Both the position numbers and the translations under genes were made by a program. Shown piece by piece: positions 1,382 to 64,000 of a DNA stretch of 64,000 nt (its first letter is position 1; the number at the start of each line of letters is the position of its first letter). Under the pieces are notes generated by a model. It worked only from the letters and a program-made list of their open reading frames with translations. It did no database searches and was not told the DNA's origin. The stretch spans positions 1,716 through 65,715 of the forward strand of contig JAVCCF010000037.1 of assembly GCA_030765625.1 (NCBI GenBank). The letters are read 5' to 3'. This stretch comes from Candidatus Tenebribacter burtonii (GTDB lineage Bacteria > Cloacimonadota > Cloacimonadia > Cloacimonadales > TCS61).

Positions 1382-3442
1382 CTATTTTTCTCTTTTCTTC
1401 AAAATCTCTTCTTCAATAATTTTTGGTACCGCTTTATATTCACTAAATTCCATCGTAAAATCTGCTTTACCCTGTGTTACTGATCTAAACTGTGTTGCCA
1501 GTCCAAAAGTCTCAGAAAGTGGCATTTCAGAATCAATCTTGGTAAATTGGTTATCTATCACTGTATCTGATACAAGTCCTCTATTCTGATTTATTATAGC
1601 CATTATATTTCCTCGAAATTCTGAAGGAGTTTCCACTGAAACTTTCATCACGGGTTCGAGTATAATTGGCTTAGCCTTGCGATAGTTCTCTCTAAAGGCA
1701 GATCTTGTAGCAACTTCAAAAGCAAGTTGCGATGAATCCACAGCGTGGAAATCACCATCATCCAAAGTCATTTTTACACCAACCACAGGAAACCCAGCTA
1801 GATCTCCCTTTGCCAATGCAGAGAAAAAACCTTTTTCACAGCCGGGAATAAACTGGCTGGGAATATTTCCACCTCTTATCTTATCTTTGAAGTAATTATC
1901 ATCTTTTCCTGAATGAGTAAGAATTCCTTTAACACGTGCAAATTGACCACGACCACCAGATTGTTTCTTATGAATATAATCAAATTCGATTGCTTTTGTA
2001 ATGGTTTCTCGATATGAAACTTGAGGTGCACGAACTTCCAGATTCACACCATATTCTCTTCTCATCCTTTCGATATACACATTTAAATGCAATTCACCCA
2101 TACCATTAATTATTGTTTCATTGGTTTCTTCATCCACGTTTGCTTTAAAGGTGGGATCTTCTTTAGTGAATCGGGACAGAGCTTTAGAAAGTTTATCTTG
2201 ATCAGCACTGTCTTTTATTCCCAGTGCCAAAGATATAATAGGTTTTGGAACATATGATTCACGCATTGTATAATTAATATTTCTACCATTGAAAGTGTCA
2301 CCCAAAGCGCAGTCAACACCAAATAGAGCTACAATGTCACCAGCTTTTGCACTTGTGATATCTTCCATATTATTAGCGTGCATTTTCACAAGTCGGCCTA
2401 CTTTTACTTTGTTTCCTGTTCTTGCATTTCTTAGTTCAGATCCTTTTGATATAGTACCTTGATAAATCCGTAAGTATGTAAGCTGGCCATATTGTTGATT
2501 TTCTAATTTGAATGCTAAAGCAACAGCTGGTAAATCAGGGTCTGAAATCAATTTTATATCTTTCATATTATCATCTTTGTCGCGAGCAATATTTATACCT
2601 GTTGTTGGATCAGGGAGATAGCGAACCACTGCATCAAGAAGTAATTGAACACCTTTATTCTTGAATGCAGATCCCATAAATACTGGTGTCATCTCCATTG
2701 TAATTGTTGCTTTTCTCACGGCTTTGATGATCATCTCTTCAGTTTCATTCCCTTCCAAAAAAGCTTCTGCCAGTTCATCACTAAACATAGAAACAGCATC
2801 GATCATTTCTTCACGCATTTCTTCAGCTTTATCTACATATTCTGCTGGAATATCTTTTTCTAAAACTTGTTCACCTTTGGGTCCTGTAAAATATCTTGCT
2901 TTGCGGGAAATAAGATCAATAATACCTTCAAACTTGTCTTCCAGTCCAATTGGAATCTGCATAAGAACAGCATTATGATCCAGCTTTTCACACAATTGAT
3001 CTTTCACTTTTTCCGGATCAGCTCCCACTCTATCCAATTTATTTATGAAGGCAATATGAGGAACTCGATATCTCTTTAATTGTCTATCTACTGTATAAGA
3101 TTGAGATTGAACTCCGCTAACTCCACAAAGAACGAGTATCGCACCATCTAAAACTCGAAGTGCATTTTCTACTTCTATCGTAAAATCCACGTGCCCGGGG
3201 GTATCAATAACATTTAAGTTATGACCATCCCATCTTACATTTGTTGCAGCGGAGGCAATAGTAATACCTCGTTCCTTTTCAAGCTCCATGGAATCCATAG
3301 TTGCTCCCACACCATCTTTTCCCCGAACTTCACCAATTCTATATATTTTATTACAATAATATAATATCCGTTCTGCCAGAGTTGTTTTACCGGAATCTAT
3401 ATGAGCACTAATCCCGATATTTCTAAATTTTTTAATATCCAT
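1382..3442 (-). CDS. fusA: elongation factor G (stand-alone copy, not in an rpsL-rpsG-fusA-tuf context)
   Basis: G1 [10 protein letters not shown]3 DTPGHVDF, G4 NKLD. Full five-domain length, 686 aa. Confidence 0.9.
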
Positions 3443-4067
3443 TTTATTTCCTCTTTTTTCTATATATCATTTCCCCATTTGAAGTTATACAAATTGAAAA
3501 AAGTACAATTAAAGATAATTAATCTATCTTATTAATTAACGTGACTATAAATTTTATGAAGGGTTATTATACAAGAAAAATATTTTTATGATTGAATTAT
3601 ATTTCTTTTCTTTCATTGATGATGAACAAGAAGCAAAATAAGAAAAAGTAATTAATGTGGTTTAGCAACTACTCCGATCATAAAATTATTATCTAATCTC
3701 TCTAAATAAACAAAATTGTAAATATATTGGGTATTATTTTCTAAAGTAAGAAGATTGATATAATTTAACCCATCATATTGCTTGATATTTGTTATGTATT
3801 CCTTAATAAACAGATATTTTCTGGAATTTTTTATAGAGAACATGTTCTTTCCGATAAAGTTTGGGTTACCTGAATATATTAACGCATTGCTATTTGTATT
3901 AAGGTAATTATTGGTTCGTATTTATGAAATTTTGATAGGGGATTTGTGGTTTAATAAATCATGTCTTTATCATTTTTCATTTATATAACAATTAAAATCT
4001 TGACATAATAATTACATAAACAAACAAATTGATTAGTTTATTAACTAAAAAATATTGGAGGAAAATT

Positions 4068-57668: not shown

Positions 57669-57755
57669 GCAGAAGTGGCGGAATTGGTAGACGCGCTAGG
57701 TTCAGGGTCTAGTGAGCAATTGCTTGTGGGGGTTCAAGTCCCCCCTTCTGCACCA
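57669..57755 (+). tRNA. tRNA-Leu (anticodon CAG), type II with long variable arm, CCA encoded
   Basis: Acceptor GCAGAAG/CTTCTGC. Anticodon stem CTAGG/TCTAG with loop TTCAGGG. T-arm GGGGG-TTCAAGT-CCCCC. Discriminator A plus CCA. Confidence 0.9.
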
Positions 57756-57765
57756 TATTTATAAA

Positions 57766-58329
57766 TCACATAAAGAATAAATGCTCAATAAGAATTTTCA
57801 ATCCAATTCCGATTAGAACTGTACCCCCGATAAATTCTATCTTATTCTCGAATAATGATCCAAATTTACCACCAAGATAAACACCCAGTAATGAAAGTAA
57901 AAATGTGATTATGCCAATAATTATTGCGGGTTGTATGATTTGAACTTGCAATGCAGAAAAACTAAGTCCTACCGCTAAAGCGTCAATACTGGTGGCAATA
58001 GATAGAACGAATACAGTTATCAAATTATTTGGATCACATTTACTTTCTGCCTTTTCGATCAGGAAAGATTCATAGATCATCTTACCGCCAATAAAAGTAA
58101 GTAAGCCAAAAGCGATCCAGTGATCGAATGCCGCGATGTAGTGTTGGAAACTAGTTCCCGCTAACCAACCTAACACCGGCATGAGTGCCTGAAAGCCACC
58201 AAAGAAGAAAGCAACTCGAAGAGCAGGACGTACTTTGAAACATTTTAAAGTAACTCCACTGGCAATAGAAACAGCAAATGCATCCATTGCTAAACCAAAA
58301 GCAATTAAAATTATTGTAATTATATTCAT
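57766..58329 (-). CDS. mntP: manganese efflux pump MntP family
   Basis: Two homologous halves with the DAFAVS / DALAVG motif. Six TM helices. 187 aa. Confidence 0.85.
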   Translation of the reverse strand: MNIITIILIAFGLAMDAFAVSIASGVTLKCFKVRPALRVAFFFGGFQALMPVLGWLAGTSFQHYIAAFDHWIAFGLLTFIGGKMIYESFLIEKAESKCDPNNLITVFVLSIATSIDALAVGLSFSALQVQIIQPAIIIGIITFLLSLLGVYLGGKFGSLFENKIEFIGGTVLIGIGLKILIEHLFFM

Positions 58330-58402
58330 TCAATCTCCAAAAACAAAACTTGAATTAAAAGATAATTAGTAAATGATTTTATCCTAACTATAAATTTTCC
58401 CT

Positions 58403-58541
58403 CGTTAACAAGTTGTATTTTTCTCATTAACAAGTTGAACTTGTTAACGCTACTGCTTTGTAAGTTTTACTTACGAACTTGTTTATTATGTAAGAAGTAT
58501 AACTTCAATATCAATTGTGTTCGCAAGTGCAACTTGCGAAC
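58403..58541. repeat. periodic array of AAGT-nnn-ACTT-apex hairpins
   Basis: 58427-58447 TTAACAAGT-TGA-ACTTGTTAA. 58457-58477 TTTGTAAGT-TTT-ACTTACGAA (one G-T pair). 58494-58506 GAAGT-ATA-ACTTC. 58519-58541 GTTCGCAAGT-GCA-ACTTGCGAAC. Centres are about 30-33 bp apart. An extra 5' arm copy at 58403-58414 can pair 12 bp with 58438-58449. Confidence 0.65.
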
Positions 58542-58563
58542 AAGAGATGTATAAATTTTGAAC

Positions 58564-58590
58564 TTGACTTTCAATAACTACAATTATAAT
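58564..58590 (+). promoter_or_regulatory. sigma70-like promoter candidate for the antitoxin/NTPase pair
   Basis: TTGACT (58564-58569), 15-nt spacer, TATAAT (58585-58590). The spacer is shorter than optimal. Confidence 0.35.
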
Positions 58591-58608
58591 TTCACAATAG
58601 GTTTAAAA

Positions 58609-58860
58609 ATGAAGACGTACAATATTGAATTAATTGAGAAAAGATTTGAAGAATTAATTGATCTCACTATTGATCATGACAATATTCTTAGAATTAAAAC
58701 CGGCAAAGGTAATGCAATTATAATCTCAGAAACAAAATGGAAATCAATTAAAGAAACTTTATTTCTTCTTTCAATTTCAGGTATGAGAGAATTGATAAAG
58801 AAAGGTATGAACACTCCTCTGGCTGAATGTAGTGAGGAATTGGAGTGGAAGAAAAGTTAG
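58609..58860 (+). CDS. Phd/YefM-family type II antitoxin-like protein
   Basis: 83 aa. MKTYNIELIEKRFEELIDL...GNAIIISETKWKSIKETLFLLSISGMRELIKKGMNTPLAECSEELEW is typical of Phd/YefM antitoxins. Start at ATG 58609 is preferred over the TTG at 58558. Confidence 0.8.
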   Translation: MKTYNIELIEKRFEELIDLTIDHDNILRIKTGKGNAIIISETKWKSIKETLFLLSISGMRELIKKGMNTPLAECSEELEWKKS

Positions 58861-58885
58861 AATTAAAAAAATAAAGGGATTTAAT

Positions 58886-61699
58886 ATGGAATCAATAATA
58901 ATTAAAATAATTGATTTAATTATAACATTTGCTTCAAAATCAATGAAAAAAGATTTTGAAATTGTAAAGTATCTGAAGAAAATGGGATTATTGAAATTAG
59001 AAGCTAATTTTGATTCAAGACTTATACATTCGTTAATTGAATTTGGTAAAAATAAAACTAATCTCAGATTCATTGAAGTTATGAAAGACAAAGTGTTACA
59101 AGAACTATTTCAAAAAGGAATATATGAAAATAAGCTTGATGAGTTTAAGAAAAAGGCTGAATTTACGCTTCATAAGAAATTAGCTTTTGAGAATATTACA
59201 TTGGATATACCATACGAGCAAATTATAGATGATTTTGTTTCAACTTTCGAAACAATTGATAAACAAACAGAAAGCAAAGCAATACTTGATTTTATAAACA
59301 ATACTAACTTGAAATTATTTGAATTATCTGAAACCAACTATAAAAACTCTTTCGAATACAAAATAGAAAAATACTTGGCTCAATTAATTGATGATTTCTA
59401 TAACAAGTTTGTGAATGATGATCTTTATGTAGACTTAAACGGTGTAACTAAAATTAAAACAAAAGTTCATCTGCATACAAAAGGAATAGTAAAAGAGGAG
59501 ATGAATGATAATTCATATGTTGAACTTAAAGCCGTAGCAGAAATAGATTATGAACCAATTGATAAATACATAAATGAATGGTTGGAAAAAGAAAATAAGA
59601 ATTTCCTGATAATCCTTGGAGAATACGGAACAGGCAAATCAACTTTATGTGAATATATTTCCTGTGATCTGGCAAAAGGTAATTTAAATCAGGGTGAACA
59701 AAAGATACAGGACAAAAAGCACAGAAAACCAATAATATTTAACCTGAGAAATTTTAGAAATCAGGGCCTCGAAGCCTTTTTAATATCTGAGTTAAGTATA
59801 AATGTCAATGAAGTATCATTTATTGAATTTAAAGAGAAATTGAAAAATGATGAATTCATATTGATATTTGATGGCTTCGATGAAATGGCAGCAGAAATAG
59901 ATGTAAGGGGGAAAAAAATTAATTTCGATTATATATTCGATATTTTAAAGTTCTATAAAAATAGTAAAATCATACTTACAAGTAGAATTGAATATTTCCA
60001 ATCATTGCAAGAACAATCGGAAGCATTAAAAGTGAATGAAGAAAATGTAGATACTATTTACATTAAATTATTTGAAGAACCTCAGATCTTAAAATTCCTA
60101 GAAAGAATGAAGGGAGAGCCAAATAAGAACTGGAAAGAGATAGAAGCTATTAACGGATTAAAAGATTTAGCAAAGAGACCGGTTCTCTTAAACTTAATCG
60201 TAAAACATTTAATGAAAATTCTTAAAGAAACAAAACAAGAAGTAAAATCGATTGATGTATTCAGTGCTGCCATCGATGATGAACTTAAAGAGATCAGGAA
60301 AAAATTCCGAAAAGATGATAGAGATTATGGAACAGATGACGCTACAAGGATGAGAATCTTACAGAAGGTTTGTATATCTCTTTTCATCAAAAATCAACTA
60401 AGCATTCCAATTATAGAAATAGCAGATTATGCTAAAAATGATCCTGATTTAAAAAATAAAAACGCAGCACAAATAGAAAACTATCTGACAAATTTCCATA
60501 CTTACACTTTCTTTGCTAGAGATAAAGATGATATTTTTAGAATATCACATAAAGCATTTATAGATTATCTGGCAGCAAAAGAGTTATATGAAGAAATTAC
60601 AAGCAATAAACCAGTGAACTTCGGGAAACAACAAATCAATGTTGCTATAATTCACTTTATCTTCGAAATGAAACCAAGTAAAACCAAATTGAAAAGATTA
60701 TTTAAAACTGCAGCAGAAACAACAGAAAAAACCAAATGGCAAAAAAGCAATGCAGTTAATTTAATTTTGAAAATTGATAATCCTCGATATGCTGGCAATG
60801 TCGATTTCAATTCAAGTGAAGTAAATTTGGAAAATTCTTATTTATATAATATTGATATTTTGATTGAATTGGAAAAATTAACAAATCTAAATTTAGCTAA
60901 GAATCAAATCAGCAACATATCACCACTACAGGAATTGAAGACTTTAGTTAGTTTAGATTTAAATAATAACCAAATCAGCGACCTATCACCGCTACAGGAT
61001 TTGAAGAATTTGACTATTATTGATTTGTCTATAAATAGAATCCGCAACCTAAAACCATTACATGGTTTGATAAACTTAATAAGTTTAGACTTATTCATGA
61101 ATAAAATTACAGACATTAAACCTTTGATTAATTTAAGGAATTTACAAAGTTTAAGTTTAGTAGGCAATGAGATCAATAATATTGAGATTTTGAAAGATTT
61201 TATTTATTTAGAGACTTTATTTTTAGCTGGTAATCAAATTAATGATATCAAGTCTTTGAGAGAATTAAAGACGTTAAAATGCTTAACTTTATCATACAAC
61301 CAAATCATCGATATCAAACCTCTGATAGGTTTAAAAAAACTTACTGATTTGAACTTACGTAATAATCGATTAAATAACATCGAATCTTTGAGAGAATTGA
61401 AGAATTTATTGTTTTTATGTTTAACAACAAATCAGATTAATGATATTGGACATTTGAAAGATCTGAAAAATTTAACAACTTTAGAACTTGCTTACAATCA
61501 AATTTGTGACATTCAACCTTTGAAAAATATGAAAAAGTTACAGCGTTTAATACTATCAATGAATAAAATTAATAATATTGATACTCTGAAAGAATTAAAA
61601 AATTTAACTGAATTATTAATAACTGGAAATCCACTTAAATCCTCTCAAATAGAAGAATTGAGGAAAGCTCTGCCCAAAACAAATATCGAATTTTATTAA
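58886..61699 (+). CDS. NACHT-type STAND NTPase with unassigned N-terminal domain and 12 C-terminal leucine-rich repeats (bacterial NLR-like)
   Basis: ATG 58886 lies 7 nt after AAGGGA; an alternative GTG at 58832 would overlap the antitoxin. Walker A GEYGTGKST (59618-59644). Walker B ILIFDGFDEM (59858-59887). ILTSR, KRPVLLNL, FRISHKAFIDYLAA. Then 12 x 22-aa LRRs. Confidence 0.8.
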   Translation: MESIIIKIIDLIITFASKSMKKDFEIVKYLKKMGLLKLEANFDSRLIHSLIEFGKNKTNLRFIEVMKDKVLQELFQKGIYENKLDEFKKKAEFTLHKKLAFENITLDIPYEQIIDDFVSTFETIDKQTESKAILDFINNTNLKLFELSETNYKNSFEYKIEKYLAQLIDDFYNKFVNDDLYVDLNGVTKIKTKVHLHTKGIVKEEMNDNSYVELKAVAEIDYEPIDKYINEWLEKENKNFLIILGEYGTGKSTLCEYISCDLAKGNLNQGEQKIQDKKHRKPIIFNLRNFRNQGLEAFLISELSINVNEVSFIEFKEKLKNDEFILIFDGFDEMAAEIDVRGKKINFDYIFDILKFYKNSKIILTSRIEYFQSLQEQSEALKVNEENVDTIYIKLFEEPQILKFLERMKGEPNKNWKEIEAINGLKDLAKRPVLLNLIVKHLMKILKETKQEVKSIDVFSAAIDDELKEIRKKFRKDDRDYGTDDATRMRILQKVCISLFIKNQLSIPIIEIADYAKNDPDLKNKNAAQIENYLTNFHTYTFFARDKDDIFRISHKAFIDYLAAKELYEEITSNKPVNFGKQQINVAIIHFIFEMKPSKTKLKRLFKTAAETTEKTKWQKSNAVNLILKIDNPRYAGNVDFNSSEVNLENSYLYNIDILIELEKLTNLNLAKNQISNISPLQELKTLVSLDLNNNQISDLSPLQDLKNLTIIDLSINRIRNLKPLHGLINLISLDLFMNKITDIKPLINLRNLQSLSLVGNEINNIEILKDFIYLETLFLAGNQINDIKSLRELKTLKCLTLSYNQIIDIKPLIGLKKLTDLNLRNNRLNNIESLRELKNLLFLCLTTNQINDIGHLKDLKNLTTLELAYNQICDIQPLKNMKKLQRLILSMNKINNIDTLKELKNLTELLITGNPLKSSQIEELRKALPKTNIEFY
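60869..61660 (+). repeat. 12 tandem 66-bp coding repeats (22-residue LRR units)
   Basis: Units of the form LxxLxxLxLxxNxIxDIxPLxx, e.g. LKTLVSLDLNNNQISDLSPLQD and LKNLTTLELAYNQICDIQPLKN. Confidence 0.9.
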
Positions 61700-61720: not shown

Positions 61721-61750
61721 AAAGGGCAACTCGTGAGTTGCCCCTACATA
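61721..61750. terminator. bidirectional terminator between the NTPase gene and leuS
   Basis: Perfect 8-bp stem GGGCAACT / AGTTGCCC (61724-61743), loop CGTG. T-rich sequence follows on both strands. Confidence 0.7.
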
Positions 61751-61792: not shown

Positions 61793-64000
61793 TTATTTCG
61801 CTACTATACTAACAAGCTTCTTCGGTACAATTATCATTTTCAGGATATTTTTCCCTTCAAGTGATTTCTTCACATTTTCTACTTCCAAAGCCAGTTTCTT
61901 TATTTCATCATCAGTTGCATCAACCGAGACATTGATCTTACCACGTACTTTACCCATGATCTGAATAACATAAGTGATCTCATCCTGAACCAGATACTTT
62001 TCATTGAATTCGGGAAGTCCAGCTTCATGGAGCAAGTTTTCGTTTCCAATTTTCTCCCACAATTCTTCGCTGAGGTGAGGAGCAAAAACATACATCAAAT
62101 GCGGGATTGCAATACAGCTTTCTACAAATATAATTTTCTCAGCATTATTCAATTTATCTACATTCTTAATAGAGTAAACATTGTTCAGATGCTCCATGAC
62201 AGCTGCGATGGCTGTATTGAACTGCATTCTGTTTTCGATATCATTCAGTACTTTCTTTATTGTGAAATGAGTACTGTAACGCAGCTTTTTAATTTCTGCA
62301 CTTAATTCGTTATCTGACCCTTCGACTCCGCTCAGGGTGACAGACGTATTTTTTATTAGTTCCAGATTTTCATCAAACAATCTCCAAACACGATTCAGGA
62401 AACGGAATGCACCTTTCACACCTTCATCACTCCATTCCGAATCTTTATCAGGGGGAGAGGCAAACAGCATGAATACCCGCACTGTGTCAGCTCCGTAACG
62501 ATCTATAATATATTGCGGATCAACCACGTTGCCTTTAGATTTACTCATTTTAGCACCGTCTTTTGTAACCATTCCCTGTGTAAGCAATCTGGCAAAAGGT
62601 TCGTTAGATTTTACCATGCCCAAATCCCGCATAAATTTATGGAAGAAACGTGCATACATCAAGTGCATTACAGCATGCTCGATCCCACCGATATACTGAT
62701 CTACCGGAAGCCAGTTATCTGCAAATTCCTTACTGAATGGCATTTTATCATTTTTGGGATCAGCATAACGAGCATAATACCAGGAACTATCCACAAAAGT
62801 ATCCATCGTATCTGTTTCACGTCTGGCAGATTTCCCGCATTTTGGGCATTTTACATTAACCCAATCATCAACTGAAAGCAATGGATTCTGAGTTGTTTTG
62901 CCCAGTTCAACATTCTCAGGAAGTTTTATGGGAAGATCTTCATCGGAGACCAGAACAGTTCCGCAATCTTCACAATAAATTATTGGAATCGGATTTCCCC
63001 AGTAGCGTTGTCGGGAAATTCCCCAGTCACGAAGTCTGTAAGTTACCGTTTCTTTTCCCATGTTGTTTGCAGTCATCCATTCTGAAATAGGTTTTTGGGA
63101 ATTAACGCTGTCCATTCCATCAAATTTATCAGAATTTACCAATATCCCAGGTTCAGTGTAAGCCTTTTTCATCTCTTCCATGATCAGATCTTTATCTGGA
63201 TTCTGAATAACTATCTTCATAGGAATATCATATTTTTTGGCAAATTCGAAATCACGTTGATCATGGGTTGGAACAGCCATCACAGCACCGGTTCCGTAAT
63301 CCATCAGAACATAATTTGTGATCCAGATCTGAACCCTTTCACCATTAACCGGATTGATCGCAAACCTTCCTGTGAAGATCCCTTCTTTCGTTGTATCTTC
63401 AGCAGTTCTCGTAATAGTATCTTCATTTAAAACTTTATCACAGAATTTTTGCATCTCAGAATCTGTCGGTTCGTCTTTAAGCCAATTCGTAACCAGAGGA
63501 TGCTCAGGTGGAAGTGCCATGAACGTACAACCGAATATTGTGTCCGGTCTGGTTGTGAATACTTTTATCAGCTCATCCGAATTTTCCAGTTTAAACCAGA
63601 TCTCAGTTCCGAAACTTTTTCCGATCCAATTAGTCTGCATGGTCTTCACACGTTCAGGCCAATCTATAACTCTACTGAAATCGAGTAATTCTTCGGCATA
63701 ATCAGTAATTTTAAAGAACCATTGTTCCAATTCTTTCTGGCGTACTACACTACCGCATCGCCAGCATTTATTATCTTCTACCTGCTCATTTGCCAATACT
63801 GTCTGGCAGTCATCGCACCAATTCTGAAACGAAGTTTTCTTGTAAGCCAGTCCTTTTTCATACATCTTTTTAAAGAACCACTGTCCCCATTTATAATATT
63901 CCGGGTGACAGGTACTTACTTCACGATCCCAATCCATTCCAAAACCCATCATATCAAATTGTTTTCTCATAATATCAATATTATTATCAGTTGTAATTCG
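61793..64000 (-). CDS. leuS: leucyl-tRNA synthetase, N-terminus beyond window end
   Basis: The frame stays open to position 64000 (…RITTDNNIDIMRKQFDMMGFGMDWDREVSTCHPEYYKW…). Editing domain, KMSKS motif (GAKMSKSKGN), C-terminal anticodon-binding part. Confidence 0.95.
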   Translation of the reverse strand, partial: RITTDNNIDIMRKQFDMMGFGMDWDREVSTCHPEYYKWGQWFFKKMYEKGLAYKKTSFQNWCDDCQTVLANEQVEDNKCWRCGSVVRQKELEQWFFKITDYAEELLDFSRVIDWPERVKTMQTNWIGKSFGTEIWFKLENSDELIKVFTTRPDTIFGCTFMALPPEHPLVTNWLKDEPTDSEMQKFCDKVLNEDTITRTAEDTTKEGIFTGRFAINPVNGERVQIWITNYVLMDYGTGAVMAVPTHDQRDFEFAKKYDIPMKIVIQNPDKDLIMEEMKKAYTEPGILVNSDKFDGMDSVNSQKPISEWMTANNMGKETVTYRLRDWGISRQRYWGNPIPIIYCEDCGTVLVSDEDLPIKLPENVELGKTTQNPLLSVDDWVNVKCPKCGKSARRETDTMDTFVDSSWYYARYADPKNDKMPFSKEFADNWLPVDQYIGGIEHAVMHLMYARFFHKFMRDLGMVKSNEPFARLLTQGMVTKDGAKMSKSKGNVVDPQYIIDRYGADTVRVFMLFASPPDKDSEWSDEGVKGAFRFLNRVWRLFDENLELIKNTSVTLSGVEGSDNELSAEIKKLRYSTHFTIKKVLNDIENRMQFNTAIAAVMEHLNNVYSIKNVDKLNNAEKIIFVESCIAIPHLMYVFAPHLSEELWEKIGNENLLHEAGLPEFNEKYLVQDEITYVIQIMGKVRGKINVSVDATDDEIKKLALEVENVKKSLEGKNILKMIIVPKKLVSIVAK

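Follow-up and report, generated by a model that had tools for sequence, protein, structure and literature searches.

A bNACHT-type NACHT-LRR gene behind an orphan YefM-type antitoxin gene at a core-gene-flanked defence hotspot of Cloacimonadota

Bacterial NACHT (bNACHT) proteins are the subject of a study by Kibby et al. that reportedly appeared later in Cell in 2023. In the preprint, leucine-rich repeats (LRRs) are placed among the sensors of bacterial NACHT proteins, the NNH domains are defined, and an LRR-bearing member, bNACHT16, is tested (bioRxiv 10.1101/2022.07.19.500537). The NetFlax survey identified Panacea and Phd-related nodes as partner-swapping hubs; each partner there belongs to a conserved pair of genes for which neutralisation has been validated, and the partners named in the main text of that paper do not include NACHT (PMC10440598). 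Defence hotspots between core genes are known from cDHS1/2 of P. aeruginosa (PMC10250203) and from the defence islands of E. coli (PMC10121019). Here, we analyse a 64-kb stretch of DNA (the window) from Candidatus Tenebribacter burtonii, of the phylum Cloacimonadota, in which the gene for an 83-amino-acid (aa) Phd/YefM-type antitoxin homolog (hereafter Phd) is followed, after 25 nt, by that for a 937-aa NACHT-LRR protein.

We consider it likely that an exchange of cargo placed a bNACHT-type gene downstream of a resident orphan YefM gene at a defence hotspot, and that the two are co-transcribed from the Phd promoter without being a dedicated pair. The same Phd to NACHT-LRR arrangement is found on eight independent metagenome contigs (L001–L008; compared loci carry such numbers), so the adjacency is not a chance artefact of open reading frame (ORF) prediction. 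A preliminary description of this DNA had placed an 83-aa ORF ending at 58860 and a 937-aa ORF starting 25 nt further on between tRNA-Leu/mntP and leuS, and both the coordinates and the setting are confirmed.

The NACHT-LRR ORF runs from an ATG at 58886, 25 nt past the Phd stop, to 61699 on the + strand. This start is supported by a ribosome-binding site (RBS) and by N-terminal conservation with orthologs (MESIIIK...); the JGI gene call on L006 begins at a GTG at 58832, giving 955 aa and an overlap with Phd. Residues 1–176 (58886–59413, +) form an all-alpha domain of nine helices that is modelled by AlphaFold with a pLDDT of 87.8. Pfam NNH5 ('NACHT N-terminal helical domain 5') is significant in the homologs P0003, P0004 and L027 (48–55 bits) and not in the window protein itself, and by analogy this NNH5-like domain is presumed to be an effector or adaptor. 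It is followed by the NACHT module of nucleotide-binding, helical and winged-helix domains (residues ~225–600; 59558–60685, +), which was delimited by Pfam, alignment, AlphaFold and Foldseek. Pfam NACHT (PF05729) matches with 37.0 bits against a cutoff of 26.7, and nSTAND3 with 29.3 against 27.2. The module holds a Walker A motif, GEYGTGKST (residues 245–253; 59618–59644), a Walker B motif, LIFDGFDE (residues 326–333; 59861–59884), a sensor-1 motif, LTSR (residues 364–367; 59975–59986), and a winged-helix motif, FRISHKAFIDYLAA (residues 551–564; 60536–60577). The motif residues, those of Walker A and B included, are invariant in a 21-sequence alignment. S554 and H555 in FRISHKAF are likewise invariant in the family alignment, H555 being a candidate equivalent of H443 of NLRC4. 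An AlphaFold model of residues 1–650 (pLDDT 81.8, pTM 0.73) was searched with Foldseek against the Protein Data Bank, and the top 35 matches are all chains of NLRC4, NOD2, NLRP proteins (including NLRP3) and NAIP, with E-values from 1.5e-10 (NLRC4) to 3e-6.

The C-terminal part of the protein consists of exactly 12 internalin-type LRRs of 22 residues each, all in register (residues 662–925; 60869–61660, +), which match LRR_4 with 111 bits and LRR_8 with 60 bits and leave a detectable 66-nt period in the DNA; internalin-like NCBIfam matches of this region all lie far below their cutoffs. The LRRs are presumed, by analogy, to be the sensor. They are about 45% identical between the window and L009, against 74% for residues 1–640. 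Together with the low identity of alleles between near-identical hosts described below, this divergence suggests either that alleles turn over rapidly or that the sensor is under diversifying selection. Dozens of homologs of residues 1–650 with the same layout occur in metagenome-assembled genomes of Cloacimonadota, Bacteroidales, Saprospiraceae, Cytophagia and Aminicenantes, many of them with Pfam NNH5 at the N terminus. No Avs or bNACHT model of PADLOC matches the protein, the sole match being a weak one to mad8 (17 bits). An identity as EruA was considered and rejected: the NCBIfam EruA match (45.9 bits) is far under its cutoff of 1000, and the literature matches for that name are unrelated. 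The 937-aa protein is a stand-alone bNACHT-type STAND NTPase, with a helical N-terminal domain, a NACHT module and 12 LRRs. The domain matches, motifs, NLR-type fold and 12 in-register repeats thus bear out the preliminary description of a STAND/NACHT protein with internalin-like LRRs. Its view that the combination of NACHT and LRR is characteristic of animal NLRs has to be given up in the light of the bacterial proteins of Kibby et al. and of the homologs in Cloacimonadota, Bacteroidota and Aminicenantes.

The Phd gene extends from an ATG at 58609 to 58860 on the + strand. Its product matches Pfam PhdYeFM_antitox (PF02604) over the whole length with 28.0 bits (E=1.9e-6), just under the gathering score of 29.8, and close homologs are annotated PF02604. 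A profile of the protein and its relatives matches the solved YefM/RelJ-type antitoxins 7v5y (E=2e-14), 3g5o, 3cto/3oei and 2a6q. By these profile comparisons the small protein is a member of the Phd/YefM family, as had been proposed. A metagenome profile scan recovered 80 loci of the wider YefM subfamily (40–54% identity), 73 of them with enough downstream sequence. A YoeB gene directly downstream was scored automatically in 54 of the 73; about 15 further loci show one once over-extended ORF starts are allowed, which raises the count to about 69 of 73 (~95%), and only three of the 73 are without YoeB downstream. Since ~95% of the wider subfamily is paired with YoeB, the empty toxin slot would be a lineage-specific loss or replacement, and YoeB is, by this comparison, the ancestral partner of the Phd clade, since lost.

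The canonical toxin is indeed missing, as first noted: with YoeB of a related locus as tblastn query, no YoeB/RelE-like gene was detected anywhere in the 64-kb window, and among the window ORFs no cognate toxin (YoeB, Doc or RelE-type) lies directly downstream of Phd. A YoeB remnant was also ruled out, as there is no tblastn match and the 25-nt spacer is too short to hold one. The further claim that no toxin-sized ORF exists near the junction holds for real genes and not to the letter, because a 104-aa antisense ORF (58777–59091, − strand) overlaps the Phd/NACHT junction inside coding sequence. This ORF has no match in PADLOC, the sole library scanned, and is probably spurious, in AT-rich sequence.

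About a dozen proteins from the same kind of metagenomes form an orphan 'MKTYNI...' clade with the window Phd, delimited by a gap between scores of at least 132 and at most 103 bits in a clade-only profile search; no member was found on viral contigs. Ratios of nonsynonymous to synonymous divergence (dN/dS) within the clade are 0.19–0.38 with both halves constrained, so the gene is not a decaying pseudogene, and the window Phd is best described, on its pattern of substitution, as a functional orphaned YefM derivative under purifying selection. Synonymous divergence (dS) among the coding sequences is 0.3–1.1, and over C46–80 dN/dS falls to 0.10–0.16 in four of ten pairs. The nearest canonical comparison is L009 (GCA_030626645.1), where a Phd 44% identical to that of the window overlaps a YoeB gene (Pfam YoeB_toxin); this YefM–YoeB pair, at 3544–4046, is inserted between tRNA-Leu(CAG) and mntP. 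In alignment, the C-terminal half of the window Phd keeps ETLFLLSIxGMRExI..EC..ELEW, common to YoeB-paired YefM proteins, and its N-terminal half has markedly diverged from them.

The NACHT-LRR gene is found in related loci without Phd. In L009, mntP is followed after 190 nt by a NACHT-LRR gene with no Phd in front, its product 74% identical to that of the window over residues 1–640. In L185/L186 and L187 (both about 51% identical to the window) the order is mntP, ~200 nt, NACHT-LRR, leuS, and in L027, which carries the second NACHT allele group, it is mntP, 160 nt, NACHT-LRR, leuS; none of these has a Phd. L027 keeps the Phd promoter and 5′ untranslated region (UTR; ...TTTTGACTTGAC...TTTCAATTTCACAATAGGTTTAGAAAT) and then continues directly with the NACHT RBS, an arrangement equal to that of L189 minus the Phd ORF. 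It looks like a clean deletion of the Phd ORF, with the same promoter driving an intact NACHT-LRR gene in the absence of Phd. Together with the three further Phd-less loci, L027 argues indirectly against a dependence of the downstream gene on an antitoxin. More widely, a Phd hidden Markov model run over 80 genome loci with NACHT relatives gave two matches, L031 and, on the far side of mntP, the Phd–YoeB pair of L025/L009, and no other recurrent leader gene was found. Small leader genes are thus no general feature of NACHT loci, and about 70 more distant ones are all without a Phd-like neighbour. The co-occurrence check proposed at the outset therefore speaks largely against a conserved pair, with Phd in front at the window, L031 and L189, and none at L009, L185/L186, L187, L027 and the ~70 distant loci.

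Conversely, Phd of the same clade is found with unrelated cargo. In L016–L018 it is followed after 25 nt by AbiGi and then by a 930-aa protein, and in L010–L015, L188 and L190 after 36–64 nt by PDC-M50A, then by convergent E2-like, ThsB-TIR/PDC-M50B and PDC-S16 genes. Only a convergent 275-aa gene comes after Phd in L019–L021, and only convergent DUF4384 and caspase genes in L191. We also asked whether the 145-aa gene that follows Phd in L010 might be a lost toxin or might have given rise to the NACHT N terminus; no similarity supports this, and the gene is PDC-M50A.

The histories of the two genes are equally discordant. We used MntP identity as a proxy for host relatedness, which separates a group A (window, L010 and L019; 85–92% identical), all with Phd beside mntP, from a group B (L009, L187, L185 and L027; 85–95%), none with Phd between mntP and NACHT; identity between the groups is 71–76%. 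In this comparison, the variable segment of one host lineage thus begins, on its left side, with the orphan YefM gene. The window NACHT is closest (74%) to that of L009, though their MntP proteins are only 71% identical. NACHT alleles are 53–54% identical between L009 and L187 and 35–38% between L027 and L185, each pair at 95% MntP identity, and those of L027, L031 and L189 are mutually 72–74% identical. With NACHT alleles at 35–54% where MntP is at 95%, the cargo is therefore decoupled from the host. Every NACHT-linked Phd is nearest to a Phd with different cargo: L189 to L010 (89%, PDC-M50), L031 to L190 (76%, PDC-M50) and the window to L016 (72%, AbiGi). The three NACHT-linked Phd proteins are only 56–62% identical among themselves, and cargo type does not follow the branching of the Phd tree. 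Shared derived residues in these three proteins were sought as a sign of co-adaptation and discounted: by eye there is one candidate position, common to the window and L031, and it is not found in L189. With NACHT-LRR genes lacking Phd, Phd genes with other cargo, and incongruent phylogenies, the co-conservation of a type II toxin–antitoxin (TA) pair is absent from these sequences.

The junctions show where exchange takes place. DNA homology among the Phd loci extends from mntP through the promoter and Phd and is lost in the final one or two codons of that gene (around codon 81), the 3′ end reading ...GAGTGG AAG AAA AGT TAG in the window versus ...GAGTGG TTA TAG in the others. The NACHT loci share only about 20 nt around the NACHT RBS. 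L019 still has the opening bases of PDC-M50A as in L010 and then diverges; the breakpoints therefore differ from locus to locus, and no precise cassette system operates here. What follows Phd changes between loci, and the breakpoints of this turnover lie no more than a few tens of bases from the Phd stop.

The site at which this happens has fixed flanks. On the left, it is anchored by tRNA-Leu(CAG) (57669–57755, +; ARAGORN, Rfam tRNA 52.6 bits), which is found at the same place in L009, L027, L010 and L185, and by mntP (57766–58329, −), a conserved core gene for a Mn exporter whose identity comes from a Pfam Mntp match to the identical gene of L001–L008 and which is syntenic in L009, L010, L019, L027, L185 and L187; dnaX belongs to the same flank of the window locus. 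On the right, the 3′ part of leuS (61793–63970, −) was recognised as an ORF and by matches of the identical L001 gene to tRNA-synt_1 Pfam families. This conserved core gene is also the right flank in L010, L027, L185 and L187, and the contigs of L009 and L189 stop short of it. GC content is 25–30% across Phd and the NACHT cargo versus 33–40% in the flanks. Cargo of the NACHT-LRR type occupies the site in the window, L009, L027, L185/L186 and L187, AbiGi with the 930-aa protein in L016, the PDC-M50A, E2-like, ThsB-TIR/PDC-M50B and PDC-S16 genes in L010–L015, L188 and L190, and DUF4384 with caspase in L191. In its flanks, its cargo and its turnover, the tRNA-Leu(CAG)/mntP...leuS interval of Cloacimonadota is a core-gene-flanked defence hotspot. 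No integrase or other mobile-element hallmark was seen in the fetched loci.

Several points qualify the favoured reading. Phd followed by a co-directional NNH5-NACHT-LRR gene was seen three times (window, L031 and L189), in two NACHT allele groups and with gaps of 25–40 nt, too often for a single accident. The gap is 38 nt in L189, on the mntP side, and 40 nt in L031, where the pair lies at an apparently different site adjoining a caspase-WD40 gene. This order accounts for three of nine Phd contexts and three of seven Cloacimonadota NACHT-LRR loci. The sample is small and includes many short contigs, and relative frequencies are biased because a NACHT-based search was what recovered the loci without Phd. 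A co-directional defence gene starts within 25–64 nt of Phd in seven of the nine contexts, so Phd could be a functional leader and not a passive flank. A second Phd copy may act in trans in the genomes that appear to lack one. Finally, the modelled N-terminal domain of the NACHT-LRR protein has no match among solved structures (best E=1.1) and no recognisable enzymatic or pore-forming fold.

Phd and NACHT-LRR very probably form one transcription unit read from the conserved Phd promoter, to judge from the unstructured spacer, the shared promoter and the position of the only hairpin after the NACHT gene. The 25-nt spacer (58861–58885, +) contains the NACHT RBS (AAAGGG) and has no predicted secondary structure (0 kcal/mol); its RBS-proximal ~20 nt are common to the NACHT genes of L009, L027, L031 and L189. 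A ~170-nt stretch found ahead of NACHT in L009, L185 and L187 is missing upstream of the window NACHT gene. Between the convergent NACHT-LRR and leuS genes, a GC-rich hairpin, GGGCAACTCGTGAGTTGCCC (61724–61743), is likely a bidirectional terminator, with predicted folding energies of −12.9 (+ strand) and −15.9 kcal/mol (− strand, where U-tracts follow) and z-scores of −2.1 and −3.0. Upstream of Phd, comparison among loci reveals a conserved block, the putative promoter and 5′UTR (58547–58608, +), with TTGACT (58564–58569), TATAAT (58585–58590) and the RBS AGG (58599–58601). The −35-like TTGACT is flanked by an inverted repeat, TTGAA (58558–58562)-N7-TTCAA (58570–58574). The block is near-invariant in the window, L016, L010, L019, L188 and L189, can still be made out in L031 and L190, and is present in L027 without Phd. 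A promoter box and a bidirectional terminator of the pair's own had been predicted, and cross-locus conservation and folding favour both, yet neither the block in a sigma-70 consensus scan nor the hairpin in a consensus terminator scan was called; both elements consequently rest on comparative and folding evidence.

Further upstream, the gap between mntP and Phd holds three strong palindromes or hairpins (58396–58545), found by repeat search: GTTAACAAGTTgAACTTGTTAAC, GTAAGTtttACTTAC and TGTTCGCAAGTgcaACTTGCGAACA. They are kept in L010 and L019 and missing from L016 and L189. An Rfam scan (E<=1) matched the tRNA alone and no RNA family in this gap, which rules out a riboswitch such as the Mn-sensing yybP-ykoY. 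The palindromes could be regulatory hairpins of mntP or a small insert resembling repetitive extragenic palindromes or miniature inverted-repeat transposable elements (REP/MITE-like).

The extreme conservation of the Phd promoter, against a dS of 0.3–1.1 in the adjacent gene, favours regulation of this promoter. The YefM–YoeB promoter of L009 has GTAC-core palindromes (ACGTACGTTTTAACGTAC) that are not found in the promoter of the orphan clade, which has TTGAA/TTCAA instead, and this difference suggests that operator specificity has changed. Such evidence bears on a first alternative, which we regard as possible and put forward tentatively, namely that orphan YefM and its promoter are a portable autoregulated module co-opted for NACHT-LRR, AbiGi and PDC-M50A, the link being transcriptional and not specific to NACHT. 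Phd/YefM antitoxins autorepress their promoters. Here, Phd would repress until infection or stress leads to breakdown of the labile antitoxin or halts its production, and derepression would then boost the immune gene. The inverted repeat across the −35-like element, the divergence of the N-terminal (DNA-binding) half, the closely spaced co-directional defence genes and the recurrence of the module at the apparently different site of L031 all fit this proposal. Repression appears dispensable, however, in L027, which has the same promoter and no Phd; in L019 and L191 Phd has no co-directional gene downstream to regulate, and the group B hotspots would express NACHT-LRR from an unrelated upstream region. 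Moreover, a purely regulatory role leaves the conserved C-terminal segment of toxin-binding type unaccounted for. A more specific version, in which orphan YefM with its ultra-conserved promoter acts as an infection-responsive gate for swapped-in immune genes and holds their expression low until the labile repressor is lost, we consider unlikely.

That C-terminal segment is the starting point of a second alternative, on which we are more doubtful than on the regulatory module. In solved YefM–YoeB-type complexes, the C-terminal half is the toxin-binding region, and in the orphan clade it is highly conserved and the most constrained part in several comparisons. Phd could accordingly have an independent function, in anti-addiction or immunity against YoeB toxins of plasmids, phages or the genome, and share nothing with NACHT-LRR except the mRNA. 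Purifying selection on a clade that has no toxin in cis would be expected under this proposal, as would neighbours that are diverse defence genes or, in some loci, none that is co-directional, and there are recorded cases of orphan antitoxins that act in trans (for instance PMC11825919 and PMC7354431). On the other side, no YoeB partner was identified in the available sequence, the N-terminal half has moved far from that of YoeB-paired relatives, and neither the very strong conservation of the promoter nor the consistent co-orientation with downstream cargo is explained.

The preliminary description had proposed a two-gene module of TA type, in which Phd binds the NACHT-LRR protein, holds it inactive and releases it on infection; although the antitoxin-first order, the closeness of the genes and their common transcription unit resemble a type II TA operon, the same pairing is found three times, Phd-related antitoxins are known to swap partners (PMC10440598) and hyperactive bNACHT alleles are toxic in E. 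coli (Kibby et al., 10.1101/2022.07.19.500537), this is highly improbable given orthologous NACHT-LRR genes without Phd in at least four genomes (one by an apparent clean deletion), unrelated proteins behind the same Phd clade, NACHT-linked Phd proteins with no shared derived residues and a tree at odds with cargo, a Phd C terminus of the kind conserved in YoeB-paired relatives, and the generally non-toxic, single-gene nature of wild-type bNACHT systems (same preprint). What survives of the proposal is a weaker regulatory version, in which the Phd promoter, and possibly Phd as a repressor, drives whichever defence gene lies downstream.

Under the favoured reading of cargo exchange behind a resident YefM gene, the cargo downstream of Phd would have been replaced by recombination, and the incoming piece would have been a NACHT-LRR cassette with no promoter of its own, closest to the allele found in a relative that lacks Phd. 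The outcome would be a bicistronic unit of Phd promoter, Phd, NACHT-LRR and terminator. By analogy with characterised bNACHT and NLR proteins, the LRRs may sense a phage-derived ligand, whereupon NTP-dependent oligomerisation of the NACHT module would activate the N-terminal helical domain and lead to abortive infection. The Phd protein would not be needed to keep NACHT-LRR harmless; transcriptional gating by Phd is plausible, and neutralisation of NACHT-LRR at the protein level is unlikely. Any role of Phd for NACHT-LRR would most likely be that of an autorepressor of the shared promoter, setting the level of the downstream defence gene or gating it by stress, and with its conserved C terminus of YoeB-binding type Phd may also, or instead, neutralise YoeB-family toxins in trans.

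Other cargo at these loci contains candidates of its own. In L016 (642–4461), AbiGi is not followed by a recognisable AbiGii and has the 930-aa protein after it, which has no Pfam or PADLOC match and could be a new AbiG partner; by eye, its C terminus resembles DUF559/Vsr-like endonucleases. In L010 (4283–6187), and also in L188 and L190, PDC-M50A is a membrane-like protein of 137–145 aa accompanied by E2-like (ubiquitin-conjugating-type), ThsB-type TIR/PDC-M50B and PDC-S16/DUF2188 genes, a cluster that joins TIR and E2-like candidate defence genes in one hotspot. Caspase (Peptidase_C14) genes adjoin orphan Phd in L191 (1–3427), with a DUF4384 partner, and in L031 (218–3068), as a WD40 fusion; L191 starts inside tRNA-Leu(CAG), and its Phd comes directly after the tRNA with no mntP between. 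In L187, a 169-aa ORF between NACHT-LRR and leuS (3249–3758) has no Pfam or PADLOC match and may be accessory or independent cargo.

Bacterial NACHT-LRR proteins were thus already known, and the Phd gene is a facultative neighbour. The interest of the locus is in its surroundings: a compact, core-gene-flanked defence hotspot in an uncultivated phylum that can be mined for the 930-aa AbiGi partner, the 275-aa and 169-aa proteins and the PDC-M50/E2/TIR cluster, and an orphan YefM clade that, with a near-invariant promoter, repeatedly heads different immune genes. L027 is a natural Phd-less control, which makes the reuse of TA remnants as regulators of immune genes directly testable. The NNH5-NACHT-LRR family adds a sensor and alleles that diversify very fast between near-identical hosts and an N-terminal domain with no known fold relative. 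Were the infection-responsive gate to prove true, a degenerated TA module would have been exapted as a switch for unrelated immune effectors, an NLR among them, which would be a new mode.

Compared with the described systems, the window protein resembles bNACHT proteins such as bNACHT16 in its tripartite layout of N-terminal helical (NNH), NACHT and C-terminal LRR parts, in having Walker A, Walker B and sensor-1 motifs and a putative winged-helix His motif, and in a fold nearest to NLRC4, NOD2 and NLRP3. It differs in an N-terminal domain that is NNH5-like without a recognisable enzymatic or pore-forming fold, in having no bNACHT or Avs match in PADLOC, and in that its role in phage defence is predicted from context, a site that otherwise holds AbiGi, PDC-M50/TIR and caspase genes; whereas bNACHT genes are usually single-gene systems in defence islands, this one lies in a bicistron behind an orphan antitoxin gene. 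With YefM–YoeB systems of the Axe-Txe/RelJ-RelK type, the window Phd has in common the Phd/YefM fold, a C terminus of the YoeB-paired type, its place as first gene and an inverted repeat in the promoter. In contrast to them, no YoeB or RelE-superfamily gene follows, neither its N-terminal half nor its promoter motifs are those of the canonical L009 pair, and the next gene encodes a 937-aa STAND NTPase that is independent of Phd. As in NetFlax, one antitoxin family stands upstream of several unrelated proteins; here, however, NACHT-LRR, AbiGi and PDC-M50A all exist without Phd, and no neutralisation is indicated. The site itself shares with cDHS1/2 and the E. coli hotspots its fixed core flanks including a tRNA, its defence-rich variable cargo, its low GC and the decoupling of cargo from host. 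Unlike them, it is very small (1–4 genes) and shows no mobile-element hallmark in the fetched loci, and its first cargo gene is apparently driven by a promoter that belongs to the conserved flank, the breakpoints falling immediately before the RBS.

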